DNA from: a bacterium
GTDB taxonomy: Bacteria; Acidobacteriota; Blastocatellia; HR10
Direction of reading: 5' to 3'
Length of the DNA: 64,000 bases
NCBI GenBank assembly: GCA_041640655.1
Contig: JBEPZV010000001.1
Coordinates: 1 to 64,000 of the forward strand
The notes beneath the pieces were generated by a model that was not told the origin of the DNA, ran no database searches, and saw only the letters and a list, made by a program, of their open reading frames with translations. The position numbers and the translations under genes were made by a program. Each line of letters opens with the position of its first letter. Within the stretch, counting starts at the first letter, position 1. This document shows positions 44,128-61,036 of the stretch, piece after piece.

Positions 44128-45012
44128 TCACGGTTGAACCGCGCGCACCGCTCCGACTTTGTAGCCGAGCCGGTCAATCGCGGCTTTGAGCTGCTCCGCA
44201 TTGACTTTCGCCGGATCGTACTCAACCACGGCTTGACCTTTTTCATAGCTCGCCTCTACGGACTTGACGCCCGGCAACCGCGTGAGCGCTTGCTCGACGT
44301 TCACCGCACAGCCGGCGCAGTCCATGCCACGAATTTCGATCGTCGCGCGAGCCAGAACGGGCACGTCTTGCGGATGGCGGTTTGTGGCGGTGGTGAATGG
44401 CGCGCTCGCTGCCGAGGTTTTGGCGGCTGAGCCCGCACTCCGAAGAGCCTCTCCGTTCGCTTTCGATGCGGAGCCCGATCGCGCAACGGCATCTCGCGCC
44501 GATTCGGCCGCCAGCGCGGGCGAGTCGGTTTGAGGAGGTTGGGATGGCGCTCGCTCAACAGGTTCCGCCCCCGTCAGCTTGTTCGTTTGTGACTGCAAAT
44601 CGCCTGCCGGATCAGTGTCGGGCGCCCCATGGGAACCCCGTATCGCCTGCGTCTTCTGCTTGGGTGAGAGGAGCGCCCAGACCGCCCCGGAGTAATACGG
44701 AAACGCGGCGAAGGCGATGACAAGACCCGTGGCCAGCCACAGCAGGATCTTATTCCACCGACCCACCGACGGGCGCGTCGCGCACACGCTCCCATCGGCG
44801 CAATGTACTTCCTGCTTGCGATAGGTGAAGTAAAACCCCAGCCCGAGCAGACCGAAAGTCAGCGCCAGCAGATAGGGCCGCCAGGCCTCGAACACGGCCG
44901 CCGCGCCGAAACTCCCCAACCCGGCGACCGCAGCCACAATCGGCCCCAGGCAGCAAAGCGACGCCGTAATGGCCGCCATCACGGATGCGACGAGCGTTGT
45001 CTCTCTTTTCAT
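44128..45012 (-). CDS. merT: MerT-HMA (MerP-like) fusion
   Basis: ASLCCLGP, WRPY, C.DG.VC, FPYY; C-terminal GMDCAGC. Confidence 0.88.
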   Translation of the reverse strand: MKRETTLVASVMAAITASLCCLGPIVAAVAGLGSFGAAAVFEAWRPYLLALTFGLLGLGFYFTYRKQEVHCADGSVCATRPSVGRWNKILLWLATGLVIAFAAFPYYSGAVWALLSPKQKTQAIRGSHGAPDTDPAGDLQSQTNKLTGAEPVERAPSQPPQTDSPALAAESARDAVARSGSASKANGEALRSAGSAAKTSAASAPFTTATNRHPQDVPVLARATIEIRGMDCAGCAVNVEQALTRLPGVKSVEASYEKGQAVVEYDPAKVNAEQLKAAIDRLGYKVGAVRAVQP

Positions 45013-45029
45013 GGTTTGTACCCTCCATT

Positions 45030-45496
45030 GCTTGTTCGTTGAGAGAAGCCCCGAAGAAAATGCTCGATGACCGGACAGGCTTTGTTGTCGGCGATAGCCC
45101 ACTCGCAGGTGGCTTCGTATCCCGCCAACTCGCGCCTCCGTCGGGGGTGAGCGCAGCATATCGGCGGTGCCGATCCTCAAGTTCCCTCGTTCGCCACCTA
45201 TGAGAGCAGTGATCCGAGTCCGTCGGCTCGGCCCCGACCGGCGCGCCGATTTCCTCCAGCGTGAACCCGAATCTCCTGACCCGCTCGATCAAGGTGATCC
45301 GTTCGATCACGCGCGGGCACTCCACGCGATTCGGAGATCGCGTGGGGACCCCGTTCGGATCAAAGAGACGATAGCCGCTCCGGCTCCGCGCCGCTTGAGG
45401 CCACAAGCCCCGTTGCTCAGAGCAACAGAGCCCGCCCCGGCTGACGCCGCTTCGCGCCTCCACCTCGCCGATCTTGAGCCCGGCCTTGTCCGTCAT
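45030..45496 (-). pseudogene. Degenerate MerR-family regulator with REP insert at 45315-45352
   Basis: LKIGEV...SGYRLFDP[14 aa]RVIER...GFTLEEI, then frameshifted relative to paralog 49851-50291. Confidence 0.78.
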
Positions 45497-45516
45497 CGCT
45501 CGGTTCTCACGCTCCG

Positions 45517-45548
45517 AGTGTAAGCCCTGGAACGAACTCCAGAGTCAA
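45517..45548 (-). promoter_or_regulatory. MerR/ZntR-type promoter-operator
   Basis: TTGACT-20 bp-TACACT, dyad CTGGA..TCCAG. Confidence 0.82.
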
Positions 45549-45574
45549 GGGCCTTTTGGACGAGACCGACCCTC

Positions 45575-45689
45575 GGGGTTCCCACGCGATCCCTCCGATC
45601 GCGTAGGGTGCTCCCGGCGTGTGTCCGGTTCTCATGCTCCAAAGGGACGACGTGATGGAGTACCCATCTCTAGATCGCCTGGGGTGCCC
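45575..45689. repeat. Two REP-like element copies
   Basis: ggggttcccacgcgatc..gatcgcgtagggtgctc and ...ctagatcgcctggggtgccc. Confidence 0.72.
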
Positions 45690-45933
45690 TTCATAGCCCG
45701 GCGTAGCACGCTGGAGAGGCAATGGTTCGGTTCGATCAAGTCCCCATCGGAAACGCCATCAATCGCCTTCCCGACGGTTTTTATTTCGCCGCTTCGGGGC
45801 TCCAATGATGAACCGGTGGCTTCTTCAGCGTGGTGGGCTTGGGCTCTTGCAGGTCCCCCTTTGGGGGCCGAAGACCCCTCCACCTTCACACTCAACCCGG
45901 ACTTTCCGACCTCCTCCCGGTGAACTAACCGGG

Positions 45934-46467
45934 TTATTGGTTGGGGCGTTGTGATGTTAAGTCGAAACTCTCTACGGCCAGGACGAACACGCCGTCTTTT
46001 CGTTCGAGCAGTTTCCCCCTCAGCGTGACGTCCTGATTCTGAATTCCTTCTGTTGCCTTCAGCTTCCTGAACTGTTCGTTCTTGGCGAGTACGAACACCT
46101 CTCCAGCGTTTCGGGGTCTAATGGTCCACTCCTTCGAGGTTGAGTTGACCCGCCCAATGACCGTGATTTCGATCTCTTTGACGGGATCAAAACCCAACTC
46201 GTCCTTGAGCACCGAGAGGATTCTCCTCACCTCGAAGGGAGTTTGGGCGCTGGCCTCAAGCTCAACAACACCGGAGCGCGAATAAGTGGCCTTTTCGACG
46301 CCAGCCTGGCGCCGGAGCGCAGCCCTCATCGTCTCCGGTCAAAGGAACTTCAGGGACTTATTCGCTCCGACGTCCCCGACAACCGTGAGGCGAATCGGCG
46401 CCTCCTGTGCTCCCACTGGTAAAGAGGCACAAAACAAGAGCAGTACGATCATTGAGACCCTCGTCAT
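45934..46467 (-). CDS. Putative selenoprotein: secreted HMA-like protein (Sec codon 46339-46341)
   Basis: ORFs 46339-46524 and 45934-46329 are in one frame joined by TGA; the TGA aligns with the CPLU Sec of paralog 53017-53580; hairpin 46296-46314. Confidence 0.72.
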
Positions 46468-46616
46468 AATCGCCCCCTCCTCAGAAAAGAGTGGCGCAGA
46501 CTTCAGTCTGCGCGAGGTTTTCATCGTTTCTGGGCGTCCTCATGGACGCCATGGATAACTCCCCGAAACTCATAAGTCTGGAGAGAAACCCGGCAGCTCG
46601 CTTCACCCGACCGATC

Positions 46617-47015
46617 TCATCGGCCGCAGGAATTCCCCCGCCAATACTTTCCCCATACTCGTTCCGGCAAGAGAGTCAACGCGCAGCCGCCCAGGATCAC
46701 GGCCAGGCCGATCCCCATCCACCCCGTGGCCGAGAGCGACACCAGCCCCACACCGTGAGCCAAAGAGACGCCCGCCCCGATCAAAAACAACGGCCCCGTG
46801 AAATAACAATGCACTCGCCCACAGCGAGCGGCATTCACAAGGCATCCCGCTCCGGCTACACCAAGCGAAACCGACCAGAGCACCGCCCGAAGGCTCGGGC
46901 TTGTGAAAAAGCCAACGGCGAAGACCGCGAGCGGCAGTTTCCATACAATCAGCGAAACCCACTTGCTCGCGACGAGATCTTTCGGCTCAGCGCCACCACA
47001 ACAGTCTGCACTCAT
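46617..47015 (-). CDS. Cys-rich membrane protein (mer-operon-associated type)
   Basis: N-terminal CC; CLVNAARCGRVHC; 4 TM. Confidence 0.75.
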   Translation of the reverse strand: MSADCCGGAEPKDLVASKWVSLIVWKLPLAVFAVGFFTSPSLRAVLWSVSLGVAGAGCLVNAARCGRVHCYFTGPLFLIGAGVSLAHGVGLVSLSATGWMGIGLAVILGGCALTLLPERVWGKYWRGNSCGR

Positions 47016-47024
47016 GGCTTCACC

Positions 47025-47552
47025 TCACGTCTCCGTCACGGCGTAGCCATCGGGCATCGGGGCCGCGACAGCTTCCTCCCGCCTTCTTGTCGAATCCGAT
47101 CGCTTCAGCGCTCTGAGCACAACCCCGGTCACCACGCCGAGGCAACACCGGCCCGACGGATTCATGATCTCACAGGCGCATCGGCCGGCCTTGACCTGCG
47201 CCTTGATGTAATCGGGAATCGTCGTTCGTCCCGTCGCCGCGATCTCATCGCGCACCATCTTCTCCGTGACGCCGAAGCAATAGCAGATCGGCACCGGGTC
47301 TTCGGTCTCCTTCACCCCCACCCGCACGCGCACGTCACTTTTGTAGAAGTACGCGTCGGCCTCGTTGGAGAAGTACACGACCGGACACGTGGGCGTCGCG
47401 CAGAAGAAGTGGGGATGATCGGTCAGACGCGCTACCGCCGACTCCACAAGCAGATGCTCCATCGTCCGCCGCGTGACGGGCTTCCCCTTCCGCCCACACA
47501 AGCGGCAGTGGGCGGAATGGACCACGATCGGCACCTGGCAACATTCGGACAT
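47025..47552 (-). CDS. CopZ zinc-binding/BFD-like [2Fe-2S] metallochaperone
   Basis: CRLCG, FC.TPTCPVVYF, ICYCF, CACE..NPSGRCC. Confidence 0.85.
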   Translation of the reverse strand: MSECCQVPIVVHSAHCRLCGRKGKPVTRRTMEHLLVESAVARLTDHPHFFCATPTCPVVYFSNEADAYFYKSDVRVRVGVKETEDPVPICYCFGVTEKMVRDEIAATGRTTIPDYIKAQVKAGRCACEIMNPSGRCCLGVVTGVVLRALKRSDSTRRREEAVAAPMPDGYAVTET

Positions 47553-47588
47553 GCGTCTTTCACCTCCTTGAGCGACCGGGCTCGTCTG

Positions 47589-48941
47589 TCAGACCATGTA
47601 GCTCACGTCTGAGCAACTGCTCGGATAGGCATAAGGCATCCGCTTCAGATCAGCCGCGCGAAGCCCCAATCTAATGGCCAGGCCAAACAGATTGATGACC
47701 TCCTCGGCATGAGGCCCCAGCAAATGCGCGCCGAGAATCCGATCGCTCCCCTCCTCGACGAGCACCTTGAATCCTGAATGCGTCATTCCCACTCGGCGCG
47801 ACGAATACCAGCCGGATGTATCCTCGCGCTTGACCCTGAACGTCAACCCCTCCGCGCGAGCCTTCTCTTCGTGCAACCCCACCGATGCCAGAGGCGGGAT
47901 CGTGAAGACGACCGTGGGCACCCCCGTGTAATCCGGGCGGCGGTGATTCCCTTCGAGGAGATTACTGGCCACGACCTGCCCTTCGATGGCGGCCACAGGC
48001 GTCAGCGGCGGGCCGCCGCTCGCCGCCACATCGCCGGCCGCGTAGACCGCCGGATTCGAGATGCTCTGGAGATATTCGTTGACGAGGACGCCTCGCCGAT
48101 CGCTCGCCACGCCCGCCACGTCCAGGTTGAGATCCTCGATGTCCGGCGCGCGCCCCGCACCGTGCACCACGAGATCGGCTTCAAACGTGTGCTCCACGCC
48201 TCCAGCGCGAGCCTTCACGATCAGGCCGCCCGATCGCCGCTCGATGGCCTCAACCGAGGTGTCGAGTCGAACGTCTATGCCGATGTCTCGCGTCGCCTGC
48301 ACGAGTCTCTCCACCAGATCCGGATCGAACCCTTTCAGCGGGCGCGACCCGCGATGGAGGATCCGAGCGTGAGCGCCCGCCCGCGCCGCCACATGCGCGA
48401 ACTCGAAGGAGATGTATCCTCCGCCGACGAAGACGATGCGCTCCGGGAGCCGGTCCAACTCCAGGAAGTCATCGCTCGTCGTCAGGAACTCTTCACCCGG
48501 AATCCCGAGCCGGGCCGGGCGCGCGCCCGTCGCGATGACAACATGCCGGGCCACCAACTCTTCATCCCCCACGGCCACAGCCGTCGGAGCCACGAAGCGG
48601 GCTCGACCGTGCACGGTCACGATCCCGGCTTGAGCGAATCGCTTCTCTCGGTTTTCCGGAATCGGATCGGTAAACGTGCGCTTGAAGCGCATCAAGTCCG
48701 ACCACTCGATCCGACACCCATCCGAGGCGATCCCTTTGCCCGTCATTCTGCGCGCCCAGTCCACGACTTCGGCGGCTCCCACGAGAACTTTCTTCGGATC
48801 GCAACCGCGCAAGGCACACGTCCCGCCAAACGGCCTCGAATCAATGACGGCGACGCTCCATCCGGCTGCCCGACACCGATAGGCCACCGTCGCAGCCGCC
48901 GTTCCCGTCCCGATGACGATGAGATCGAATTGTCGCCCCAT
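47589..48941 (-). CDS. Pyridine nucleotide-disulfide oxidoreductase (class I; lacks the MerA C-terminal CC)
   Basis: GGTCALRGCDPKK, GGGYI, GDV, ILGAH; ends YPSSCSDVSYMV. Confidence 0.9.
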   Translation of the reverse strand: MGRQFDLIVIGTGTAAATVAYRCRAAGWSVAVIDSRPFGGTCALRGCDPKKVLVGAAEVVDWARRMTGKGIASDGCRIEWSDLMRFKRTFTDPIPENREKRFAQAGIVTVHGRARFVAPTAVAVGDEELVARHVVIATGARPARLGIPGEEFLTTSDDFLELDRLPERIVFVGGGYISFEFAHVAARAGAHARILHRGSRPLKGFDPDLVERLVQATRDIGIDVRLDTSVEAIERRSGGLIVKARAGGVEHTFEADLVVHGAGRAPDIEDLNLDVAGVASDRRGVLVNEYLQSISNPAVYAAGDVAASGGPPLTPVAAIEGQVVASNLLEGNHRRPDYTGVPTVVFTIPPLASVGLHEEKARAEGLTFRVKREDTSGWYSSRRVGMTHSGFKVLVEEGSDRILGAHLLGPHAEEVINLFGLAIRLGLRAADLKRMPYAYPSSCSDVSYMV

Positions 48942-48952
48942 GATCGCCTCCC

Positions 48953-49801
48953 TCACAGGACGGCCTTGAAGCCGGTCCTGTTGATCGCGTCGGCCACCTG
49001 CTCGAGCGTGACGCGTGCCGGATCGAACGTCACGACGGCGTGCTTCTTCTCGACACTGACCTCTACAGCCTTCACCCCATCGCGCCGCATGAGCGCCTGC
49101 CGGACCGACGCCGCACACCCGGCACAGGTCATCCCTTCGACGGGAATGGTCGCCGTCACGGCCTCGATCGTGAAGCCGGCTTCCTTGACCGCCTCCACAA
49201 GCTTTTCTAACCGGATCCGCTCGGGATCGTACTCGACCAGGGCTTCGCCCTTTTCGTAGCTGGCCGTCGCCGAGCGCACTCCGGGAAGAGCTCCAAGCGC
49301 CGACTCCAGAGCGGCCGCGCACCCGCCGCAGGTCATGCCGCCGACTTCCAGCCGCACGGGGTCCCCACGCGATCCGGAGATCGCGTGGGGTGCCCGCACG
49401 CTTATCGGCCGCTCGACCGCAGCCGATGCGACCGATCCCCCTTGCTCCTTCGACGGACCGTTCAACGCCGCCCAGAATCGCCCGGAATAATAGGGAAACG
49501 CGGCAAAGAGCACGATCACGACCGTAGCGATCCACAGGATCGTCTTCTGCCATCGCGAGGCCTTCCTGGTCGCGCATGCCCCATCGGCGCACGCCGCCTC
49601 TTTCCGGCGATAGGTGAGATAAAACGCCGCCGCCAGCAGCGCGAACGTCACGACGAGCAAATAGGGTCGCCACGCCTCGAAGGCGGCCGCCGCGCCGAAA
49701 CTCCCCAACCCCACGACCGCAGCTACAATCGGCCCCAAGCAACAGAGCGAAGCCGTGATCGCCCCAATGAGCGAAGCTCCAAGTGCGATCTTCTCCCTCA
49801 T
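48953..49801 (-). CDS. merT: MerT-HMA-HMA fusion (REP insert at 49358-49395)
   Basis: ASLCCLGP; GMTCGGC and GMTCAGC. Confidence 0.9.
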   Translation of the reverse strand: MREKIALGASLIGAITASLCCLGPIVAAVVGLGSFGAAAAFEAWRPYLLVVTFALLAAAFYLTYRRKEAACADGACATRKASRWQKTILWIATVVIVLFAAFPYYSGRFWAALNGPSKEQGGSVASAAVERPISVRAPHAISGSRGDPVRLEVGGMTCGGCAAALESALGALPGVRSATASYEKGEALVEYDPERIRLEKLVEAVKEAGFTIEAVTATIPVEGMTCAGCAASVRQALMRRDGVKAVEVSVEKKHAVVTFDPARVTLEQVADAINRTGFKAVL

Positions 49802-49850
49802 CGTCCCTCCTTTCACACGGGGGTCCCCATGGGGCGCCCCCGACATCCCT

Positions 49851-50291
49851 TCACTCCCGTTTCCGCCCCCGCCGGGGCTTTGACGCGCGAGAGGAAGGGT
49901 GAAGAAAATCCTCGATGACCGGACAGCTCTTCCGCCCGGCGACGGCGCGCTCGCACTCGGCCTTATAGGCCGAGAGCTCGCGACGCAATCGTTTGATCTC
50001 CTCGTACCGCCGATCGAGATCCTCGAGCTTGCGCGCGATCACCTGCAGAACCTCCGCGCACGTCCGCGGTTCGGCCGTCGGTAATTGGAGCAATTGTTTG
50101 ATCTCCTCGAGCGTGAAGCCGAAGCTCTGCGCCCGCTTGATGAAGCGCAGGCGCTCGATCACGCGCGGATCGTACAGCCGATACCCGCTCTGCGTCCGAG
50201 CAGCTCTCGGCAAAAGCCCCAACCGTTCGTAGTAGCGGAGCGTATCCACGCTCACGCCACATTCGGTGGCCACCTGGCCGATCTTCAACAC
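49851..50291 (-). CDS. Heavy-metal MerR-family regulator
   Basis: LKIGQVA..TLRYYE..GYRLY..GFTLEEI; C...C..CP metal ligands. Confidence 0.92.
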   Translation of the reverse strand: MLKIGQVATECGVSVDTLRYYERLGLLPRAARTQSGYRLYDPRVIERLRFIKRAQSFGFTLEEIKQLLQLPTAEPRTCAEVLQVIARKLEDLDRRYEEIKRLRRELSAYKAECERAVAGRKSCPVIEDFLHPSSRASKPRRGRKRE

Positions 50292-50325
50292 CGCCGCTTC
50301 CCCTCCGCTCGTTTTCACAACCGCC

Positions 50326-50357
50326 AGTATAAACCCTGGACCTATCTCCAGAGTCAA
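50326..50357 (-). promoter_or_regulatory. MerR/ZntR-type promoter-operator
   Basis: TTGACT-20 bp-TATACT, dyad CTGGA..TCCAG. Confidence 0.85.
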
Positions 50358-50536
50358 GCGAAAGCTTCAGGTGTGCCACCCCAAGCCAGGCACGAGCGGT
50401 TCCCTGGCGGCCATCGCATCTACAGCGATGACGTGCCGATTGCGTATCACCGAATATGTCGAGCGGGGTCTCGCCGGCGCGTGAGTTCGAGCTCCATCGT
50501 TTCACCCGAACATGGGTGACTTGTTGAGTCGCCCCT

Positions 50537-52720
50537 TCAATTGGGTCGGCGCGCGCGTTCGATCGCCTCCAGCGCTGCTGCCAACCACTTCTCGCCCTGG
50601 CCGCCGAAGCCCACCTGCTCCAGGACCACGGTGCCTTCTTGACCGATCAGCCAGCTGCGCGGGATGCTCACAAGCGGCAAGACGCTCTCCACATACGAAG
50701 AGGCCGGGATGACCGGGAAACTGAAGCCGTGCTTGTTGACGTAAGGCTCCACCAATCCGAGATCCGCATCCACGTTGAACGTCAGCACGAGCACATCCGG
50801 GTGATCTTTCAGGCGTTCATAGAGCTTCTGCACGTAGGGCAGTTCCTCGCGGCAGGGGCCGCACCACGTCGCCCAGATATTGATGAACGTGATCTTGCCT
50901 CGGAGATCGGCCAGCCGCCAGGTTCGTCCTCGAAGGTCTTGAAGCTCGAAATCGGGAAGGGGCATCTGGCGCTCCTCCCATGCGCCGGGAGAGGCTTCCC
51001 CAATCGGGGCCGTTGCCCGCGCCAACCACGCATGCCATCCCTCAGTCGTTCCCCCAAGCTCTCTCCACAAGCGCTCGACTCGCTTCGTCAGGTCTTCTCT
51101 CGATGCGCCTCTCTCATCCGGCTCGGGCCCCTCCAGCAGCGCCTTTTGATAAAAGGCGAGGGCATCGAGCTTTCGGTTTTCGGCCTCGGCCAGCCGCGCC
51201 ATCCACTCCCAGTAGATCGCCTGACGTCGAGCGTGGAGGCGCTTTTCTTCGCTCGGAGCCGACTCTTGCGGTCTTCGCCGGACCAGAAAGTCTTCCATCT
51301 GAATGAGCACTTCGCGCGCCTTCTCCCGCCGGTTCATCTTCAGGTAGGCGTCGAGCAAGATCGGCCATCCGCGCCAGTAGCTGTAGTCCACGTTGCCTTG
51401 AAGGGCTTTTTTCGCCTCGGCCGAAAGGTCGTCGCGTCGGACGTCCCGCTCCGTTCTCCGTTCGATCTCGCGGAAGCCGCGCTCAATCAGTTCCGGGATG
51501 CGTTCGAGTCGAACGCCGCGCTTGAGATAGAGCTGAGCGACCTGAAGGGCCGGGGGCGGCAGGGCATAAAAGAGGTCGGACTGTTTTTCCGAAGCGCTCA
51601 GCAGGCGCTCGCCGATCGTCTCGATCTCGACAGAAGGGAGATCGTCCAGCTCGCTCGCGGCCTCAAGTCGTCTCAGCCATGGAGCGGGATGATCGGGCCA
51701 GCGCTGAATCCATTCCTCGGTTGCGCGGAAGAGGGCGCGATAGTACGCTCGACGCTTCTCCGGAGGGTCGGTCTCGCCGGGGCGAGGGTGAGCCGCGTTC
51801 CATCGGTCGTAGACGATGAGGGACATCACGCCGCTGGAGTGAGGGAATCGGCGCAGCATCTCCTCTTCCACCCAGCGAAGGCCCTGGGCGTCGCCGGTCA
51901 TCTCGTAGCCCGTGCGAAGCGTCAAAAGCCCGCGCAAGGTGTTGCCCAGCCCCAGATCGCGCAATCGCGTGAGGTCTTCTGCGATCTGTTTTCGGAGCCG
52001 CGGATGTTCCGTCACGGGCTTCGCCTGGAACTCCAGTCGCCACAGGGTTTGGTAATAGGAGAGGTCTTCGGGATCGGTCCGGCTCCGAAGCCGTACGCGC
52101 AGCTTTTGGGCGGCCTCGGCGAGGAACTCCCGATCGTCCATCCGGCCGGCAAGCTCATACGCCTCCACGCTCGAGGGGCAGAGCCTCATGAACGTCTCCA
52201 GATGGGCGCGCGCTTTCTGCAGATCTTTCCAGGGGCCCTGCAGATGGATTCGGGCCAGCGCCAGGTGAGCCAGCGGGAAGTCGGGCGCTCGCTCGATGGC
52301 CTTTTCGAGAAGCGCGATCGCCAGGTCGGTCTGTCGGCCGATGAGGCTGTTGCCGTACAGGTACAAAGCGAGAGGATCATGGGGCTGTCGTTCGAGTCGT
52401 GCCTTGTACTCGGCGATCAGCGAATCCAGCTCATCGTCCATGACCTGCTCGATGAAGCCCAGGTAGCGACGGTGGACGAAGGGATCGTCGGGAAATTGTC
52501 TCAACAGGGGGCGCAGGATGGCCAATCCTCGCTCTCGGCGTTGCTCTCGTCCCGTGCGCGCGTCATCATCGAAGGACAATTTCCGGAGGGCCAGTTTTAC
52601 TTCGGGAGATGGCTCACAAGGAGAGTTCACCGCTTGTGGCCACACAGAGGCTTTAAGCGTCACGGCGAGGACGCCGCTTAAAACGACCTGTCGCCACGTG
52701 ATCTTCTTGTTGGCCTTCAT
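50537..52720 (-). CDS. Secreted TPR protein with C-terminal TlpA/redoxin domain
   Basis: Signal peptide, TPR-like helices, WATWCGPC. Confidence 0.87.
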   Translation of the reverse strand: MKANKKITWRQVVLSGVLAVTLKASVWPQAVNSPCEPSPEVKLALRKLSFDDDARTGREQRRERGLAILRPLLRQFPDDPFVHRRYLGFIEQVMDDELDSLIAEYKARLERQPHDPLALYLYGNSLIGRQTDLAIALLEKAIERAPDFPLAHLALARIHLQGPWKDLQKARAHLETFMRLCPSSVEAYELAGRMDDREFLAEAAQKLRVRLRSRTDPEDLSYYQTLWRLEFQAKPVTEHPRLRKQIAEDLTRLRDLGLGNTLRGLLTLRTGYEMTGDAQGLRWVEEEMLRRFPHSSGVMSLIVYDRWNAAHPRPGETDPPEKRRAYYRALFRATEEWIQRWPDHPAPWLRRLEAASELDDLPSVEIETIGERLLSASEKQSDLFYALPPPALQVAQLYLKRGVRLERIPELIERGFREIERRTERDVRRDDLSAEAKKALQGNVDYSYWRGWPILLDAYLKMNRREKAREVLIQMEDFLVRRRPQESAPSEEKRLHARRQAIYWEWMARLAEAENRKLDALAFYQKALLEGPEPDERGASREDLTKRVERLWRELGGTTEGWHAWLARATAPIGEASPGAWEERQMPLPDFELQDLRGRTWRLADLRGKITFINIWATWCGPCREELPYVQKLYERLKDHPDVLVLTFNVDADLGLVEPYVNKHGFSFPVIPASSYVESVLPLVSIPRSWLIGQEGTVVLEQVGFGGQGEKWLAAALEAIERARRPN

Positions 52721-53016
52721 CGTGCCCTCCCGATCGGAAGGAACTCTGCCAGAAGATAATGCCACATTCAAGCGCGGCGAGGCTATGTACGTCACCGGCT
52801 CGACAAGGGCTGCCGCCATGGCACGTGAGGCATCGAACCAGGGCGTTCCGTCGTGCGGCGGCACTCGGGCCTGTCTGCCGACAGGCGGATGACCGTGATG
52901 GCCGCCGTGCTCTCGCATCCTGGGTCAAGGGAGAACCCTTGCTCTTCGCCTTTTCGAGCGCGTTATTGAGAGGGTTACTTTTTGCGCCGCGGCTCTAGAG
53001 CTCGCTCGGACTCAGA

Positions 53017-53580
53017 TCAGATTCCCCGCCGCAACAGGCGCAACACCACTTTCCCGCCAAGTCCAAGACCATCCTCGCCCAATGGCTCAAAGTTCTCAAC
53101 GGTGAGACCGGGCGGACGATCTGCATGGCTGGGATGAAGCTTCCCAGTCACGCGGATTTTCTTCCCCACGAGGTCAGTCCGTTTGCTGAGTGCGGCTGCC
53201 TCTGCTCCACCGGCCAACACAAACGGATGGTCCAACCCGGGAACATCGAGCGTCGGGAATTCTCCCTGCGCAATCAATGTCCCATCAACCACCACCACAA
53301 TAGCGGCTGGGGTGAAGCCCGCATCCCGGAGCGCCTGGGGGATCCGAACGGGATCGAAGGATTTTCCGGGCCGGGGAAACACCTCCACTTCTCCTCTCGC
53401 CAGGTTCACGTCGGCACGATCAACGCCTTCCAGGCGCTGGAGGGCTTTCTGTGCCCCTCGCGCTCAAAGGGGACAGAAGAGGCCGTCAATTTTAACCGTC
53501 GCCCTCACCACCTGAGCCGATACCGGCGCGGCGGAAAAAAAGCCAAGCAGAAGCAAAAGCCATAGGCTTGGTCTGTTCAT
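53017..53580 (-). CDS. Putative selenoprotein: secreted HMA-domain protein with CxxU (Sec codon 53464-53466)
   Basis: MNRPSLWLL..VKIDGLFCPL-TGA-ARGAQKALQRLEGV; in frame with ORF 53017-53409; hairpin 53421-53439. Confidence 0.85.
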
Positions 53581-53635
53581 CAGCTTTCTCATGTTCAAAC
53601 CCTCCGAAGAAATCGGGTCGCGTCATCCGGAGCTC

Positions 53636-54649
53636 CTAGAACAAAAATCGGAATCCGAGAAGAAAGGTCGAACCAGGCTCCGGTTGCCTCCCGTTGAGGG
53701 CCCGGACGACCGGAATCGGAGCCGAGAATTCGACCAAAAATCGGTCGCTGAGGAAGTACTGGATTCCCGGTGAGACCGAAAGCGTCGTCCCGCCGGTGTC
53801 AGGCACTTCCTTGCCCTGGCGGCGGGCGCGAGCTTGCCAGGTGCCGTTCATTTCCACGACGAGATACGCCCCATGGCGGAACAACCGATCAAGGGCCCTG
53901 CGCGGCCACCCGGCCCGAGCGCCTGCCGCCACGTTGTTCGATGAGATGACAAAGCGCGACAGCGCGGCGTCAAACCGGAGCCGGTCGCCCACGGACAGAC
54001 CCCCGCGGTTCTTGGTCGCATGAGTGTACTCGAAATCGCCACTGAAGACGTACTTCAACCTCACCGCCTTCTGGAAGATCATCCCGCCGGTGTACTCGAC
54101 CGCCCCCGTCGAGAACCGGTCAGCGCCCGTCGGCACCTGCAATCCAAAAACTCCCGACAGCCGCGTCATCCCACCGGGGGCGTTGCGACTGTAGAGCCCA
54201 TCGTACTGAACGAACACTCGCGCGTCGGCCAACCCACTCACGCGCTCTCGCTCTGCTTCACCTCCCATCCGATGGGTCACATCTACGATCGCGTAAGGCT
54301 GAGCCAGGATGACCATCCAGCCCGGAGAAAATCCGTAGACAACGGTCACCGCCGGAACATACTGAGTGACGCCGACCGATCCTTCCTCCATTCGAAGAGA
54401 AGAATGCCGAATTTCAACGGATGAGCGGATGAGCGTCGCCCGATTGAAGAGCGTCCGGGCGCTCGGCGCCACGATGGTCTGCGCGCGCCCGTCGGCCGAT
54501 GAAAGCCCCATGCCGCCGATGAGCACGAGCGCGATGCTCCAGGACGCCGGTCTCCGAAATCGCGCAGGCTTCCCGGCCGGCTTTCCCCAAGGCCCAGCCG
54601 TCGAGGCGAAGGCCGCTACAAATTCCGACGTTTCCGACCGACGCGGCAT
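53636..54649 (-). CDS. Outer-membrane beta-barrel 'transporter' (MetA-pathway/phenol degradation-like); start uncertain
   Basis: GLAD, PTG, TGGTTLSVSPG, terminal F. Confidence 0.75.
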   Translation of the reverse strand: MPRRSETSEFVAAFASTAGPWGKPAGKPARFRRPASWSIALVLIGGMGLSSADGRAQTIVAPSARTLFNRATLIRSSVEIRHSSLRMEEGSVGVTQYVPAVTVVYGFSPGWMVILAQPYAIVDVTHRMGGEAERERVSGLADARVFVQYDGLYSRNAPGGMTRLSGVFGLQVPTGADRFSTGAVEYTGGMIFQKAVRLKYVFSGDFEYTHATKNRGGLSVGDRLRFDAALSRFVISSNNVAAGARAGWPRRALDRLFRHGAYLVVEMNGTWQARARRQGKEVPDTGGTTLSVSPGIQYFLSDRFLVEFSAPIPVVRALNGRQPEPGSTFLLGFRFLF

Positions 54650-54663
54650 GTGACGACCCGTTG

Positions 54664-54963
54664 TCAAAAGAGGCGGAGGCTCCAAAGTAAGGCCGAGACG
54701 CCCGTCCCCGCCCACACCGTGAAGCGAGCCGTTCGCCCTCCCTGCCCCTTCACGTTCACCAGATAATGCGCGCGCAGCAGAGCGTACACGGTGAGGGCCC
54801 CGAAGATCGCCTTCCCGCGGGCGAAGATCACGTGCGCGGCGACGGCCCCTGCTGTCCCGAGCAGGGCGAACACCGTTGGCGCCAGTCAGCACCAGGGGAG
54901 CGACGCCAGTACCGCCACCCCACTGCAGATCGGCCCCCACCGCCAAGCGCGCCGCTTCTCCAT
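54664..54963 (-). CDS. Putative selenoprotein: MerT-like transporter with CU (Sec codon 54886-54888)
   Basis: AAGGAGG RBS; MEKRR..LASLPWC-TGA-LAPTVFALLG; 3 TM; hairpin 54847-54866. Confidence 0.78.
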
Positions 54964-55053
54964 CTCGGCCTCCTTTGATCCACCGGGGAGTGCCCGCGCA
55001 GACGCTCCCCGGGGCACCCACTGCGATCTATACTCGAGTAGTGACTGACGCCG

Positions 55054-55227
55054 TCACTTCTTCAGCGGACAGGCATCGCGGCAGATGATCTTGCCCGTGA
55101 GCGGGCAGACGATCCGACCCGGGCAGCTCGATGGGCTCTCGGACGATGCCTTGAACCCATAGAGCGCTCCCGATCCGATCGCTCCGCTCAACACGAGCAG
55201 CAACACGATCCGGCGCATTCGTCGCAT
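55054..55227 (-). CDS. 57-aa secreted/anchored Cys-rich peptide (below ORF track cutoff)
   Basis: MRRMRRIVLLLVLSGAIGSGALYGFKASSESPSSCPGRIVCPLTGKIICRDACPLKK; GGAGG RBS right after merR. Confidence 0.72.
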   Translation of the reverse strand: MRRMRRIVLLLVLSGAIGSGALYGFKASSESPSSCPGRIVCPLTGKIICRDACPLKK

Positions 55228-55230
55228 CGG

Positions 55231-55680
55231 TCATCCCTCCTTTCCGTGATCTGGGCGGTGATGCCCGGCCAGCGTCATGATGAGCGAGCAGACGTAGGGC
55301 GAGGAGTCTGCTTGATCGGGCATCGCGTCCAGTTGGGCGAGCAGAGCGGATAGCTCCCGGCGAAAGGCTCGCAGTTCGGCGATCTTTCGATCCAGCGCCC
55401 GAAGCTTTTCCCGAAGCAAGGCTCGGACTCGCGCACATGGCGATCGCCCCTCGCGGCTGAGCATGACAAGCTCTCGAATCTCCGCCAGCGACAGCCCCAG
55501 CGCCTGCGCCGCTCGAATGAAGCGCAGCCGCATGAGCGCCGCCTCATCGTAGAGGCGATAGCCCGAACGCGTCCGCGCCGCCCGCCCCAACAATCCCTCC
55601 CGCTCGTAATAGCGAACCGTCTGAGGCTTCACCCCCACGGCCCGCGCCAGCTCGCCGATGTAAAACGTCCGACCCGACAT
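55231..55680 (-). CDS. Heavy-metal MerR-family regulator
   Basis: YIGELA..TVRYYE..GYRLY..GLSLAEI; SPC, VC. Confidence 0.92.
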   Translation of the reverse strand: MSGRTFYIGELARAVGVKPQTVRYYEREGLLGRAARTRSGYRLYDEAALMRLRFIRAAQALGLSLAEIRELVMLSREGRSPCARVRALLREKLRALDRKIAELRAFRRELSALLAQLDAMPDQADSSPYVCSLIMTLAGHHRPDHGKEG

Positions 55681-55704
55681 CTCACGCCTCCTTTCACACT
55701 CGCT

Positions 55705-55736
55705 ATTCTAAACCTTGCAGCCAACTGCAAGGTCAA
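55705..55736 (-). promoter_or_regulatory. MerR-type promoter-operator
   Basis: TTGACC-20 bp-TAGAAT with perfect dyad ACCTTGCAG-N4-CTGCAAGGT. Confidence 0.88.
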
Positions 55737-55817
55737 GCCCCATTTTTCAGCGCGGGCAGAGGGAGCGCCCCTGGAGAGCTTCGGTGTGTAATCTCGATTA
55801 CTGAACGGCTCGGTCGG

Positions 55818-56594
55818 ATGGCGTTAAGCTGGTGGCTCGATGCGAATTTCCGATCTCTGCGAATTTCCAATCTGCCGGAGACGATCATGACCGATCGAAG
55901 AATACCGGACGGCATTGTCCGAGGCCGGAACGCGAGGCCCTCCATCCGGCCGCGCCTACGGCCGACTATTTCGGCCCACACGATACTCTCGACAGCCGCG
56001 CTGAGATGCTCAGGAGCACGAGGGACCGTCCGCCTCTCGCATGCACGCGTTGTTGTGATCGCTGTCTCCCTGGTTGCCGGAATATCGTTCACTGCCGGCA
56101 GCAGGGGCGCATGGTCACGCGTCTCGGCTCATGATTCGACTCTCGCCGTTGCCGCCGACAAGGATGCTGATGAGAGGGGTCGGCCCGCGCCGGAGCTCGA
56201 GCTTGTGGATGTTCGCGGTCGCCCGGTGCGTTTGGCCGCCCTCCGGGGTAAAGTCGTGATCGTGAATTTGTGGGCGACCTGGTGCCCTCCCTGCGTGATG
56301 GAAGTCCCGACCTTCAAGAAGCTCCACGCGACGTATCGAGATCGGGGGCTGGAGATCATCGCCATCTCTCTAGACGAGGACGAACGAGAGGTCAAAACGT
56401 TCATCCGGGAACACGCCCTCCCCTACACCGTCATCCTCGGCGATGAACAGATCGCGGAGAAGTTCGGCGCGTTGACGGGACTCCCCATGACGTTTTTCAT
56501 TGATCGGAAAGGGCGCATCCGTGCCGAGCACGCCGGTTTCATGGACGAGGAAGATTTCGTCCGCGAGGTCGAACGATTGCTGTCGGAGCCGTGA
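55818..56594 (+). CDS. TlpA-family thiol:disulfide oxidoreductase (true start probably downstream)
   Basis: NLWATWCPPC, GLP.TF.IDRKG. Confidence 0.85.
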   Translation: MALSWWLDANFRSLRISNLPETIMTDRRIPDGIVRGRNARPSIRPRLRPTISAHTILSTAALRCSGARGTVRLSHARVVVIAVSLVAGISFTAGSRGAWSRVSAHDSTLAVAADKDADERGRPAPELELVDVRGRPVRLAALRGKVVIVNLWATWCPPCVMEVPTFKKLHATYRDRGLEIIAISLDEDEREVKTFIREHALPYTVILGDEQIAEKFGALTGLPMTFFIDRKGRIRAEHAGFMDEEDFVREVERLLSEP

Positions 56595-56715
56595 TTCATC
56601 CCGGCTCCGCTTCTCCTCTCGATGATGCGAATGTGGTAGACTCATGTTCCGTGACTCGCCGAAAACGGCCGACACGGGGTACAGATCGCAAGGGATGCCC
56701 TGAAGGAGGTGAGGA

Positions 56716-57828
56716 ATGATCGTGACGCTTCGACGATTCGGCCGGCTGACCGCGCCGCTTGTCGCTCTGTTGACGATGGGACTTATGAGCGCTGCTTCTC
56801 AGTTCCAGAAAGACAAACTCTTTGTCGTCACCCAATTTCCCCCGGAGTTGAACGATCCGGAGTTCATCCCCGCCACCCATCCCGACGGTGGCTACCTGGA
56901 TGACACCGAGACGGTGATGGGCATTGCGCTCGAGGGAGAGAGCCGGGCCTATCCGCTCCGGATCATGGCCTATCATCATGTGGTCAATGACGTCGTCAGG
57001 GGCCGCCCCATCGTCCTGGCCTACTGACCGGTCTGCGGGACGGGAGTCGGGTTCGACTCCGTGACACAGCAGGGGAGGCGGCTCATGTTTAAGCCGCACG
57101 GATTGTACAACGCCGAACTCGTGTTCGCCGACACCGAGACGGGAAGCGTCTGGTCGCTGACGAGCGGCGAGGCGATGGAGGGTCCGCTCGCAGGCCAAAG
57201 ACTCAACAAACTCGCGGTCGTGCAGACAACCTGGGCGAAGTGGAAACAGCTCCATCCCGACACGCTGATCGTTTCCAACCGGACGCCCCATCAAGCCCAC
57301 TACAAGCCGTTTCGCTGGCAGCCGCGCCAGCTCAGCTCCGTTTTCGAGCGCACGCTCACGCATCGAGATGAGCGACTGGGAAGAATGGAGCTGGTCCTGG
57401 CGGTGGCCCTGGGCGATGAACGCAAAGCCTATCCCTTATCCACGCTCAAGCAAGCGGGCGGCGTGGTGAACGATGTCGTCGGCGGCGTGCCGATCGTCGT
57501 CTTCTACGATCCACAGACGAACACCGCCGCCGCTTACGAGCGCAAGCTGGGCAAACGGGTGCTCCGCTTCGAGAACGCAGATCGGCAGGGCGAACGGGCA
57601 CCCCACGCGACCTCCAGTTCGCGTGGGGACCCCATACGGCTCGAGGCGGTGGATACGGCGACGCGTTCCCGGTGGAACCTGGCCGGTCGCGCCGAGTCGG
57701 GCCGACTGCGCGGCGAGCAACTTGCAGCCGTGCCGGCTCACACGGGAGCCTGGTACGCCTGGGCCGCCTACTTCCCGGATACGAAGATTTACACCTCGGC
57801 CGCTCGTCAAAGGGAGCGCCAGAAGTAG
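56716..57828 (+). CDS. Putative selenoprotein: DUF3179 protein, UPVC (Sec codon 57025-57027); REP insert at 57596-57633
   Basis: RAYP...HHVVND..PIVLAY-TGA-PVCGTG continues in frame into ORF 57061-57828; hairpin 57043-57060. Confidence 0.87.
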
Positions 57829-57844
57829 AGGCATATGACTGCGC

Positions 57845-57882
57845 GGGGTCCCCATGCGATCTATAGATCGCATGGGGTGCCC
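57845..57882. repeat. REP-like element (identical to 37861-37898)
   Basis: ggggtccccatgcgatctatagatcgcatggggtgccc. Confidence 0.9.
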
Positions 57883-57990
57883 GAGCGCCCATGTCACGTC
57901 TTTCGCGATCGCCGCCATCGGGTGTTCAAGCGGAGGTTCACGGAAAGGGACTCCGCATTCGGCCAAAATAGATTATGTGGAGGTCAACCG

Positions 57991-58488
57991 ATGAACAGCG
58001 CTGTGGTTTATCGTTCGCGGGTACGGATTGAGCGCGTCGCGGGTCCGCTCCGGCGGGCTTATCTTCCGGCGGAAGCGCTGCCCGTTCTCTTCGGCGTCCA
58101 TTCCGAAGTCGCCGCGCACTACGGCGTTGATCCGCGTGTCCATGAACCGCACGCCACGACGCTCGATTATCTGGTGGCGGCGGCGGCGGGCTGACTCACC
58201 GGCACCTTCGGTGGCGCGCTGGAAGCGCGCGGGATCCCCGCCGGAGAAGGACGGCTCACCTCGGAGGCCACGGGCGAAGTGGAAGCCGACGGGCGCGTGC
58301 TCATCGTGCGGCGCATTCACGTGACGTATCACCTGCGCCTGAGACCGGACAAGCGCGAGGCCGCCATCCGGGCTCACGAAAAGCACGCCGAATACTGCCC
58401 CGTCGCTCGAACCATCGGCGGCTGCGTGACCATCACGACTTCGCTCGAGATGGAGGACCTCGCTGAGGATGCTGCCGATACCGGTTGA
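57991..58488 (+). CDS. Putative selenoprotein: OsmC-like protein (Sec codon 58192-58194)
   Basis: LDYLVAAAAG-TGA-LTGTF...YCPVARTI; hairpin 58214-58230. Confidence 0.87.
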
Positions 58489-58520
58489 GCCGACACCGGG
58501 GAGAAGTTCATTCGGCAGAG

Positions 58521-58559
58521 GAGTGCCCCATGCGATCTCCGAATCGCATGAGGATCCCC
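58521..58559. repeat. REP-like element
   Basis: gagtgccccatgcgatctccgaatcgcatgaggatcccc. Confidence 0.75.
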
Positions 58560-58637
58560 GTGCGGTTTCTCCGCCGAAAGCCGGGGCGTGAGTCCTTTCG
58601 ACAGCATTTTCAGCAACCCCATGGTGGGAGGTCAACG

Positions 58638-59642
58638 ATGAAGACATCGGTTCTGATTGCCGCTCTCTGTTTCATGATGGGTCCGGGCGGGCTCATCGCG
58701 TTCGTTCAAGAGAAACAATACCTCGATGCGGGTCCGGGCCAGCGCCCGTTCGACGTCACCAAGCGCTCGGTTCCGCTCGAAGACATTCAAGGCGGCGGAC
58801 CGCCTAAAGACGGCATCCCGGCTCTCGACTCGCCCACATTCGTCTCGGCTCGCGAGGCCGAAAAATTCCTGCGTCCTTGGGATCGCGTCTTAGGCGTTTC
58901 GCTCGCCGGCGCGGCCAAAGCCTACCCGATCAAGATTCTCAACTGGCACGAGATCGTCAACGATCAGGTTGGGGATCGGCCCATTCTCGTCACCTGGTGA
59001 CCGCTCTGCAGTTCGGGCGTCGTGTACGACCCGATCATTGACGGCAAGCGATTCACCTTCGGCGTGTCGGGCAAGCTCTACAAGGCGGCTCTGGTCATGT
59101 ACGACCGCCAGACCGAGAGCCTCTGGTCGCAGCTCATGCAAGAAGCCATCGCCGGCCCGATGACAGGAGCGAAGCTCGCCATCCTGCCGAGCCTCCACAC
59201 GACGTGGGAGCACTGGCGGGCGCAACATCCTCAGACGCTCGTCCTCTCGCCCGAGACGGGATTCCGCCGCGATTACGGCTTGAATCCCTATCAAGAATAC
59301 TGGGAGATGGGCCAGCCGCCCCGTTTCCGGCGCCCGCCCAAAGAGAAGAAGTCGGATGTCAAACTCAGGCCCATGGAGCGCGTGCTCGGCCTCTCAGTGG
59401 ACGGCGTGAAGAAGGCCTATCCCTTCTCCGTGTTGAAGAAGAAGCCCGAGCGATTTGAGGATCATGTCAGCGGGAAGAAGGTCATCATCCACTTCGACAA
59501 AAAATCGGAGACCGGATACGTCACCGATGAGCGTGGGATTCTCATCCCTTCGATCGCGCTCTTCTGGTTCGCGTGGAGCGATTTTTATCCCGATACGGAG
59601 GTCTACGGCGAGGAGCCGTCACAGCAACAGCCGGTCCGCTGA
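58638..59642 (+). CDS. Putative selenoprotein: DUF3179 protein, UPLC (Sec codon 58998-59000)
   Basis: GGPPKDGIPA, KAYP..WHEIVND..ILVTW-TGA-PLCSSG..FGVSGKLY; hairpin 59013-59034. Confidence 0.9.
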
Positions 59643-59766
59643 CATCCGGTAGGCCGCCCTGAAGAGGGCCTCCGGCTCACAGGGACGCGGGCGCAGCCGC
59701 CGCGCCTTCATCGAGCTGTCATCTTTGCGTGCAGGCATCATATCCCTTGGGAGGATCTCGCACGAA

Positions 59767-60230
59767 TCAACGACGCCCTGCCCTCGAATCTGCCCACGCC
59801 GTTGGCGCGATGACCGTCACGGCCAAATCGCTCGGCGCAGGCATCCCGCTGCGCGGATCAATGATGTGAGCGATGCGCCGACCGGCCACTCGCGTCGCGT
59901 TCTCACATACGAATCGGAAGAGCCAATGGCCATATCGCTCAGCGCGAGCGTCAAGGCCATGCGCTCGGGCCGGGCCGGATCCCTCACGGAGACGCGCCAA
60001 GGACGATCATCCGGCCCCTTCCCCAGAGCGTAGATCGAGCTTTCGCCGAAGTTGATGAAGGCTCGCGCATGCCCCCGGGCGCGCGCGGCGCTACAGCCCC
60101 CGACGGAACATCGTCTCTCGCGACCGGCGCGATCTCAGGCGCTTGGCGTCGCCGACGCTTCACCGCGCCCCCAGCGATCTCCACGAGGCCGGCGATTTCT
60201 TCGTCTCCACCTCCGCTCACCTCCTCGGAA
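59767..60230 (-). pseudogene. apbE: ApbE (FAD:protein FMN transferase) remnants
   Basis: HIIDPRSG.P...VTVIAPTA..AD and FINFGESSIYALG found in different frames. Confidence 0.6.
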
Positions 60231-60649: not shown

Positions 60650-61036
60650 TCACTTGAGATCCGACTCGACGCGCAATCCATCGAGAAACTTGTTGATCCC
60701 CATGAAGAGATCCACGACGGCGAGGGCCTCCAGCAATTCTTCAGTGGAAACACCCATTCGTCGCAATCCCGCCGTATGAGCGTTGATACAGTATTCGCAG
60801 TTATTGACGGTGGAGACGGCCAGGGCCAGAAACTCTTTCGTCTTCGGGTCCAGCTTGCCCGGCCCCATGATCACTTTGAAACGATTCCAGCTCGCTTCGA
60901 GATAGGCTGGATGATTCGCCATCGCTCTGAAGAGATTCGGGACAAAAGGCAAATTAAAGGTGCGCTTGATGTCATCAAAAATGTCTTTCACCTTCCCTGT
61001 TGCTTGCTGTTCAGAAGTCAAAGGTACTGTTGCCAT
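60650..61036 (-). CDS. AhpD-like peroxidase/CMD protein
   Basis: VPNLFRAMA, KE.LALAVS..NNCEYCINAH. Confidence 0.88.
   Translation of the reverse strand: MATVPLTSEQQATGKVKDIFDDIKRTFNLPFVPNLFRAMANHPAYLEASWNRFKVIMGPGKLDPKTKEFLALAVSTVNNCEYCINAHTAGLRRMGVSTEELLEALAVVDLFMGINKFLDGLRVESDLK

Follow-up and report, generated by a model that had tools for sequence, protein, structure and literature searches.

This locus raises the question whether six in-frame TGA codons that stand close together on one stretch of bacterial DNA are read as selenocysteine (Sec), and what the genes that contain them might do. The stretch analyzed, referred to here as the window, comprises the first 64,000 nucleotides (nt) of contig JBEPZV010000001.1 (assembly GCA_041640655.1; Acidobacteriota, Blastocatellia, HR10), and the six genes, designated g1 to g6, lie in an island at positions 45,934 to 59,642. 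The window belongs to contig C1 of a genome of 3.13 Mb in 128 contigs, which is 89.8% complete and has a guanine plus cytosine (G+C) content of 61%. As described below, the six TGAs are very probably Sec codons, read by SelB and tRNA-Sec with the help of the hairpin that follows each of them.

In translation, each of the six frames contained a single internal stop, which was TGA in every case and stood at the position given in the original prediction. Genes g1, g2 and g3 lie on the minus strand. Gene g1 (45934-46467) encodes an exported protein with a putative HMA-like domain and a putative OB-fold, its TGA at 46339-46341 (KFL-U-PETM, where U marks the TGA) and its hairpin at 46296-46314. Gene g2 (53017-53598), for an exported HMA and OB-fold protein, has its TGA at 53464-53466 (FCPL-U-ARG) and its hairpin at 53421-53439, and g3 (54664-54963), for a MerT-like membrane protein of 99 residues, has its TGA at 54886-54888 (PWC-U-LAP) and its hairpin at 54847-54866. 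On the plus strand, g4 (56716-57828) and g6 (58638-59642) encode DUF3179 proteins, with TGAs at 57025-57027 (LAY-U-PVC) and 58998-59000 (VTW-U-PLC) and with a hairpin at 57043-57060 and a bulged hairpin at 59013-59034, respectively. Between them, g5 (57991-58488) encodes an OsmC-like protein with its TGA at 58192-58194 (AAG-U-LTG) and a hairpin at 58214-58230.

The selA, selB, selC and selD genes had been reported as absent from the window, and all four were found elsewhere in the genome with scores above cut-off. The selA gene lies on contig C50 (586.5 bits), selB on C17 (372 bits), selD, itself containing one TGA, on C2 (365.4 bits), and tRNA-Sec (selC) on C3 (75.2 bits), where ARAGORN gave the anticodon tca (UCA). 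Given a complete set of Sec genes, together with TGAs that are kept in relatives and that stand opposite Cys or Sec in homologs, the six genes are regarded as genuine selenoprotein genes.

Conservation was followed in an order-level comparison of 12 genomes, the window's genome included. Relatives recovered with g2 were Bacterium HR10 (87% identity) and Bacterium HR08 (genome G302, 69% identity). In HR10 every island gene was present, in unchanged order and with TGA at all six sites; in HR08, where the island was without g1, the flavin reductase gene and the TPR-TlpA gene described below, TGA stood at five sites. Protein identity to HR10 and HR08 was 69-96% on both flanks of the TGA.

If the TGAs were true stops, the genes would be pseudogenes or split genes, or the codons would be sequencing errors, and gene callers did indeed split all six genes. 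The HR10 ortholog of g1 (L025, 17292-17470) also tells against a readable gene, as one nucleotide is deleted between its signal-peptide part and the Sec codon; this copy is either broken or mis-assembled. The 130 nt upstream of it are nearly identical to the window. However, the same TGA recurs in up to 10 other genomes with the protein conserved on both of its flanks, Cys or Sec is found opposite it in homologs, and the Sec machinery of the genome is complete. In addition, two metagenome records 99.99% identical to the window both span the g1 TGA, and one of them also spans the g2 TGA. These records are additional assemblies that bring no new diversity, and the island beyond position 54397 lies outside their coverage. 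True stops were accordingly judged very improbable, and the reading as Sec codons was retained.

Each TGA had been predicted to fall at a family Cys position, and the alignments agreed, with all six TGAs at Cys positions, or at a second Sec, of homologs. From these alignments, Sec would occupy metal-ligand sites in g1, g2 and g3, the first position of the CxxC motif in g4 and g6, and the peroxidatic position in g5.

The clearest family assignments were those of g4 and g6, which matched DUF3179 (PF11376) with 240 bits, spanning the TGA, and 299.4 bits, respectively, against a gathering cut-off of 27. Both proteins carry a Sec-x-x-Cys motif and an N-terminal signal or anchor. The g4 TGA is retained in HR10 and HR08, and among g6 and g4 homologs the site is TGA in G302, G303 and G307 and TGC or TGT in five Cys-form homologs of G308-G310.

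Gene g5 matched Pfam OsmC (PF02566) with 51.1 bits (cut-off 27.5). In alignment with Thermus OsmC (1UKK), its U stands opposite the Cys of the AGC motif, which we take to be the peroxidatic Cys, and a second Cys (EYCPV) is kept. Within the order, five orthologs were found with one TGA, along with a distant homolog with Cys in G310. At class level, in a search of 300 other genomes, all ten with a match at E<=1e-20 hold one TGA at the Sec site and never TGG. With the motif GULTGT, g5 scored only 17.8 bits against the NCBIfam model OsmC_like_Se (NF041052), below its cut-off of 95, and appears to represent a different OsmC subfamily that is nearly always in the Sec form in the genomes searched.

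For g3, orthologs within the order showed PWC-TGA in four of four cases, down to 45% identity. A wider search gave 39 representative proteins at E<=0.001, and in the 28 full-length homologs aligned the Cys form is PWCC, with C25 and C26 invariant in every one. The family, with members of about 95-125 residues, matches MerT-type models only among those of NCBIfam: 18 of the 29 members scanned matched merT_RC607 at E<=0.01, the best at 6.6e-11. Scores for g3 itself stayed below the MerT cut-offs, that of NF010314 included, with no Pfam hit (PF02411) and 21.6-22.4 bits vs. 130 for NF033560. The C-U pair of g3 aligns with the CC pair of the MerTP fusion encoded in the same window. Judged from sequence, g3 would be a MerT-like membrane protein of three helices, the first of which bears a Cys-Sec pair; by score it is not MerT.

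The N-terminal domain of g2 matched Pfam HMA (PF00403) with 37.1 bits (cut-off 24.8), with the ligand pair CPLU at the start of helix 1. In a structural model with a predicted local distance difference test score of 85.0, Foldseek related the N-domain to CopZ, MerP and HMA7 (E 1.6e-4 to 1e-3) and the C-domain to OB folds. Against the UxxU metal-binding model NF041115, g2 scored 36 bits, below the cut-off of 95. The ligand motif of the g2 family varies within this one bacterial order through CxxU, UxxU, UxxC and CxxC: it reads CPLU in the window and HR10, UGLU in HR08 and G310, CPFC in G308, CPFU in G307, and both UPFC and CPFC in a tandem in G309. In that tandem (L039, contig C87 of G309, 471-1998) the two HMA+OB paralogs have a short MerT-like gene between them, and they look to be a natural Sec/Cys pair in one operon.

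Gene g1 had zero Pfam hits; its relationship to g2 was detected by BLASTP (E 2e-4), and in a multiple alignment it aligned end to end with the g2 family. Its model (score 86.7 on the same scale) showed a beta-alpha-beta-beta-alpha-beta arrangement followed by a beta domain, with Sec at the start of helix 1. Foldseek with this model returned nothing at E<=0.001, only weak OB-fold matches of the C-domain, among them YgiW and NlpE. The protein has a lone Sec without a partner Cys. The pairwise BLASTP alignment placed this Sec at the first Cys of the g2 motif; this placement was set aside in favor of the multiple alignment and of the spacing from Sec to a conserved Gly-Val, which at 12 residues is identical in g2 and in the HMA domains of MerTP. 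The preferred position of the g1 Sec would therefore be the second ligand position of the HMA fold.

In G302 and G307, the g1 orthologs (52-53% identity) retain the signal peptide and a single TGA, in the same place and in frame. A phylum-wide search with g1 found it in 0 of 300 other genomes, so that either the family is narrow or the query is weak. On the minus strand, a terminator-like hairpin with a T-run (46494-46513) lies between the neighboring membrane-protein gene and the ribosome-binding site of g1, and g1 may be separately transcribed or attenuated.

It was evident that genes of this kind are broken by standard annotation, as had been expected, and that databases hold almost only the fragments beyond the TGA. 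All nine g1 homologs in databases are fragments of 126-131 residues that start past the TGA, as are, at 105-127 residues, most of the 120 g2 homologs among the matches listed.

The same databases provide the evidence for an altered code in which TGA would be read as Trp or Gly. A wider search with g5 gave 678 matching proteins, and site residues were read for the 120 listed: Trp in 97, Cys in 12, Ser in 3, Ala in 2, Leu in 2, Arg in 1, Gly in 1 and a gap in 2. The g2 homolog P0013 shows the same pattern, with WGLW in place of the UGLU of HR08. However, TGA is the terminator of 1069 of the 1344 long open reading frames (ORFs; about 80%) of the genome, so the code is standard. All Trp-form g5 homologs but one cluster came from contigs of at most 3483 nt (public sets P0169-P0287), in contrast to the TGA found at this site in whole genomes, and the aligned residue of the solved OsmC is the catalytic Cys. 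An altered code is therefore scarcely credible, and Trp at the Sec site is probably an artefact of gene callers that switch to code 4 on short contigs and thereby hide selenoproteins.

Hairpins were present at all six sites, beginning 12-24 nt 3' of the TGA and carrying a G within the first two bases of every apical loop, and those of g2 and g5 have a U-GGA-A apex in common. Coordinates, spacing, G-bearing loops and the apex shared by two hairpins were thus reproduced as originally described. The bacterial Sec insertion sequence, following the rule of Zhang and Gladyshev, is said to be a hairpin just 3' of the UGA with a G in its apical loop. A feature of this type was found at six of six sites, with modest statistical support.

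Under a strict hairpin model, with 3000 random in-frame coding positions of the genome as controls, five of the six sites ranked in the best 3.4-6.1%; the bulged hairpin of g6 escapes this model and scored 56.8% against the same controls. The hairpins persist in orthologs of the island genes. For g5, 97.1% of 70 alignment cells pair over 10 distinct sequences, with one double change from G-C to A-U, and for g1 all 32 cells (100%) are paired, one pair being altered on both sides.

Two results reduce the weight of these hairpins as evidence for Sec insertion. With a permissive model, controls folded equally well in 19, 41, 10, 28, 96 and 61 of 300 cases for g1 to g6, respectively. Folding energy by itself is modest to weak evidence in a genome of this G+C content. 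Covariation is also thin, as the observed scores were reached by 49 of 500 shuffles for g5 and 80 of 500 for g1; it is consistent with the hairpin structures and not decisive. An Rfam scan of positions 45500-60000 returned zero matches.

A crude and incomplete genome-wide selenoprotein screen, in which a hairpin and a good downstream coding score were required, kept 155 candidates, including five of the six island genes. Fifteen candidates had a Cys within three residues of the TGA, and SelD, a disulfide oxidoreductase and one AhpD-like gene were convincing. The likely selenoproteins are SelD with the motif GUAC (genome G000, C2:48233-49294), a protein disulfide oxidoreductase with UPYC (C15:1946-2656; TIGR02187, 284.7 bits) and an AhpD-like protein with CFYU (C1:217820-218461; TIGR01926, 178.6 bits). 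An AhpD/YciW-like candidate with CAYU (C1:148218-148799) is weaker and below cut-offs. This screen thus recovered three or four likely selenoprotein genes outside the island.

One screen candidate (C18) proved to be two separate genes and not one selenoprotein. In the window, read-through ORFs with TGA at 17122 and 37034 were rejected because their Pfam domains begin downstream of the TGA. Codon-usage scoring of the short stretches before the TGAs was too noisy, g4 alone passing the first filter.

The genes around g1 to g6 fall into units headed by genes of MerR-family regulators. Unit 1 runs on the minus strand in the order merR_c, mini-protein, g3, barrel and g2. The regulator gene merR_c (55231-55680) matched Pfam MerR_1 and MerR-DNA-bind, and its best NCBIfam model was ZntR-like (111.9 bits vs. 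143). The mini-protein (55054-55227, minus strand) has 57 residues with four Cys (CPx5CPx7Cx3CP), is exported or anchored, gave no family hit and is 91-98% identical in HR08 and HR10. The barrel gene (53636-54652, minus strand) encodes a Phenol_MetA_deg-like outer-membrane beta-barrel (PF13557, 37.2 bits, cut-off 22).

Unit 2, also on the minus strand, runs in the order merR_b, MerTP, flavin reductase, CopZ-N chaperone, membrane protein and g1. The merR_b gene (49851-50291) matched Pfam MerR_1 and MerR-DNA-bind, with 121 bits vs. 150.85 for NCBIfam MerR. It is followed by an all-Cys MerT-HMA-HMA fusion, MerTP (48953-49801), which exceeded the cut-off of MerTP_fusion (190.2 bits, cut-off 180), matched Pfam MerT and two HMA domains, and also scored 141 bits (cut-off 95) against UxxU_metal_bind NF041115. 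The flavin reductase gene (47589-48944) encodes an FAD (flavin adenine dinucleotide) pyridine-nucleotide disulfide reductase (Pyr_redox_2, 188.7 bits), with 311.5 bits vs. 480 for glutathione reductase. The next gene (47025-47552) encodes a metallochaperone-like protein of the CopZ N-terminal Zn/2Fe-2S type (zf_CopZ 66.5 bits; CopZ_Nterm_CC 139.6, cut-off 100), and the last before g1 (46617-47015) a Cys-rich membrane protein of 132 residues with an N-terminal CC, which had no Pfam or NCBIfam hit and adjoins g1 in HR10 and G307 as well.

Between the two units lies a minus-strand gene (50537-52723) for a protein with TPR repeats and a TlpA/ResA-like thioredoxin fold with WCGPC (Pfam AhpC-TSA, Redoxin, TPR). 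Divergent from merR_c on the plus strand are a TlpA gene, g4, g5 and g6. This TlpA gene (55818-56594, start possibly downstream) encodes a membrane-anchored TlpA/ResA-like thiol-disulfide oxidoreductase with WCPPC (AhpC-TSA 97.9 bits, Redoxin 87.9 bits).

A third MerR unit (44128-45550, minus strand) consists of a promoter (TTGACT-20 nt-TACACT, 45517-45548), a disrupted-looking merR_a and a second MerT-HMA fusion (44128-45015), identified by its Pfam MerT and HMA matches. The merR_a gene, in the interval 44750-45550 of the minus strand, shows a weak MerR-DNA-bind hit, has its C-terminal part in another frame and contains a palindromic repeat at 45320; its long-spacer promoter is intact.

Promoters with a long spacer and a dyad are a hallmark of MerR-family activators, in which the -35 and -10 elements are 19-20 nt apart. 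Upstream of all three merR genes, a -35/-10 spacer of 20 nt (or 19 nt) holding a dyad could be read from the sequence. The merR_c promoter (minus strand) consists of TTGACC (55731-55736), a 20-nt spacer and TAGAAT (55705-55710), with a perfect 9-bp dyad, ACCTTGCAG-N4-CTGCAAGGT, at 55712-55733; that of merR_b (about 50326-50357, minus strand) reads TTGACT-20 nt-TATACT with an imperfect dyad. The original prediction of a MerR-controlled island is supported for g3 and g2, where the strand shared with merR_c, the close spacing and the promoter anatomy point to such control. MerR control of g1 and of the divergent TlpA-g4-g5-g6 group is only plausible.

A palindromic repeat of 28 nt, CCCCAYGCGATC-N4-GATCGCRTGGGG, occurs in 19 copies in the 3.13-Mb genome, nine of them in the 64-kb window (at 30781, 37866, 45320, 45580, 49363, 57601, 57850, 58526 and 61553), an enrichment of about 23-fold. 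One copy lies within a 42-nt in-frame insert of g4 (57598-57639) that is missing from HR10 and HR08, and another in the linker-coding part of the gene for the MerTP fusion. The repeat looks like a repetitive extragenic palindromic or miniature inverted-repeat transposable element (REP/MITE-like) that is tolerated within coding sequence. Just past g6, an ORF of 76 residues (59767-60000, minus strand) matches only positions 203-238 of the 266 of the ApbE profile and is probably a gene remnant. A phage-type integrase gene (14447-15583, minus strand; Phage_integrase, 132 bits) lies about 30 kb from the island.

Parts of the arrangement recur in relatives. The barrel gene adjoins an HMA+OB gene in five of them (HR10, HR08, G307, G308 and G309), and a g3-like gene is also linked to these two in HR10, HR08, G308 and G309. 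G308 and G309 represent a different family of this order, and in both the barrel gene stands together with HMA+OB genes and the g3-like gene; G309 carries in addition a gene resembling merR_b, one for MerTP and a reductase at 72% identity. In G307, the barrel lies beside the HMA+OB gene with CPFU, and the order merR, membrane protein, g1, MerTP also occurs.

In contrast, three of the other six genomes in the genus, at 94-98% completeness, have none of g1, g3, g5 and g6, which tells against a universal island. In G307, g5 lies on a different contig, and the six genes therefore do not form an obligate unit. The island is accessory.

Taken together, six Sec genes, MerR-linked units and a soft-metal relay probably give the best explanation of the locus. 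The relay role is a reasonable inference from the protein families. The original prediction of a largely envelope-located system fits five of the six products; the OsmC-like g5 has no signal peptide.

In the model proposed, a thiophilic ion, with Hg(II) as the best guess, would enter through the outer-membrane barrel and be captured by the selenolate/thiolate site of an HMA+OB protein in the fashion of MerP. It would then be handed to the Cys-Sec pair of the MerT-like g3 and pass into the cell, where the MerT-HMA fusion, the CopZ-N chaperone and the flavin reductase would receive it. TlpA would hold the exported Sec-x-x-Cys DUF3179 proteins reduced, and the cytoplasmic OsmC-like g5 would clear peroxides arising under metal stress. 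Sec instead of Cys might provide tighter and faster binding of soft metals. Such a selenium-based, mer-like envelope relay, in which MerR would switch on the barrel, the HMA+OB carriers and the MerT-like protein, with selenolates at every hand-off and DUF3179 as TlpA-maintained redox or metal partners, is put forward tentatively.

The arrangement can be compared with mer operons of the Bacillus RC607 type, in which merR is the first gene. Here, too, merR comes first behind a long-spacer dyad promoter and is followed by membrane and periplasmic metal-binding proteins. In contrast to mer operons, the island has no MerA above cut-off and no MerB, carries Sec for Cys at the hand-off sites, and adds the barrel and the Cys-rich mini-protein.

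Mercury is the best guess because merR_b has three Cys (Cys78, Cys113 and Cys123) whose spacing of 35 and 10 residues is close to the pattern of Tn501 MerR, and because g3 matches MerT-type models only. Several observations speak against this choice of metal. The reductase scored below the MerA cut-off (304.1 vs. 454.45 bits), and its translated C-terminus is without the Cys pair of MerA; merR_c has two Cys only and scored best against ZntR-type models; and g2, like g3, falls far below every NCBIfam cut-off.

The genes may accordingly be selenoprotein genes that serve another thiophilic ion, such as Cu(I), Ag(I), Cd(II) or Zn(II), or envelope sequestration or export instead of import for reduction. 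The HMA, CopZ-N and MerR-family scores are as near to CopZ/CueR/ZntR models as to MerP/MerR, and the merR_c dyad presumably resembles CueR-type boxes. On the other hand, the Cys spacing of merR_b, a MerTP fusion above its cut-off and the MerT-only matches of the g3 family do not favor another ion. This alternative is considered possible rather than probable.

The two TlpA-like genes, one of them adjoining a DUF3179 gene, together with the OsmC-like gene and AhpD-like genes at 43661-44029 and 60650-61036, would also suit an island devoted mainly to thiol/selenol redox and peroxide defense in the envelope. Metal sensing would then be a mere trigger, and the HMA proteins would be redox clients more than carriers. 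Metal ions are indicated instead by the genes for MerT-like and MerTP proteins, by the three merR genes and by the CopZ-N chaperone and the HMA folds, and a mainly redox function appears rather unlikely.

When compared with published selenoproteins, the island genes belong to known kinds or are close variants of them. The selenoprotein tables of PMC9312934 and PMC13188914 contain DUF3179 (UxxC/T), OsmC-like (UxxT), a putative mercuric transport protein (PF02411) and UxxU metal-binding (NF041115) proteins, and a preprint by Haft (bioRxiv 10.1101/2022.07.06.499078) mentions MerT-family selenoproteins with a CU motif, which form a small group. The statement that Sec forms of DUF3179 and OsmC-like proteins are recognized was therefore correct, and the novelty implied by the original prediction was overstated, as these sources already cover four of the protein kinds.

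As far as the tables characterize DUF3179 selenoproteins, g4 and g6 agree with them in scoring far above the Pfam cut-off, in the placement of Sec at the first Cys of CPxC, and in their N-terminal signal or anchor. They differ in nothing essential, the distinctive points here being two paralogs that share an operon with TlpA and an OsmC-like selenoprotein, and the in-frame repeat insert of g4.

With the MerT selenoproteins outlined in the preprint, g3 shares its Cys-Sec pair at the helix-1 Cys-Cys position of MerT, the small three-helix form and the MerR-headed operon. It belongs, however, to a separate PWCC/PWCU family set apart by model scores.

The UxxU proteins of NF041115, entered as 'putative mercuric reductase' in an Olavius symbiont list, and the HMA proteins MerP and CopZ are comparable to g2, and probably to g1, which have Sec at the ligand positions of an HMA fold, with UxxU in relatives. 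In contrast to these, the g2 family adds a conserved C-terminal OB-fold and a signal peptide, and g1 has a single Sec and no partner Cys.

With the OsmC-like selenoprotein entry (NF041052), as far as it is given in the tables, g5 shares the OsmC fold family, Sec at the peroxidatic Cys and the retained resolving Cys. It represents a different OsmC subfamily, with the motif GULTGT as opposed to UxxT.

In the literature searched, supplementary tables of reviews aside, no description of an HMA+OB selenoprotein family or of this operon was found, and the text of a 2026 selenoprotein review contains neither 'HMA' nor 'PF00403'. Three features are new: an HMA+OB family in which every Cys/Sec combination occurs alongside a lone-Sec variant, an OsmC subfamily found almost always in the Sec form in the genomes searched, and the clustering of six Sec genes within a single MerR-linked island.

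With this analysis, six broken gene calls are corrected, and the same error runs across whole families in public data. The HMA+OB metal site, which occurs as CC, CU, UC, UU or a lone U within one order, forms a natural series on the contribution of selenium to metal binding. Gene linkage, moreover, offers testable roles for DUF3179, for the PWCC/PWCU membrane proteins and for the barrel. If the relay model is true, it would be the first selenium-dependent pathway of soft-metal (Hg-type) uptake and detoxification and would provide the first functions for DUF3179 and the HMA+OB family. Selenium supply would then be tied to the handling of mercury or other soft metals in Acidobacteria-like bacteria.

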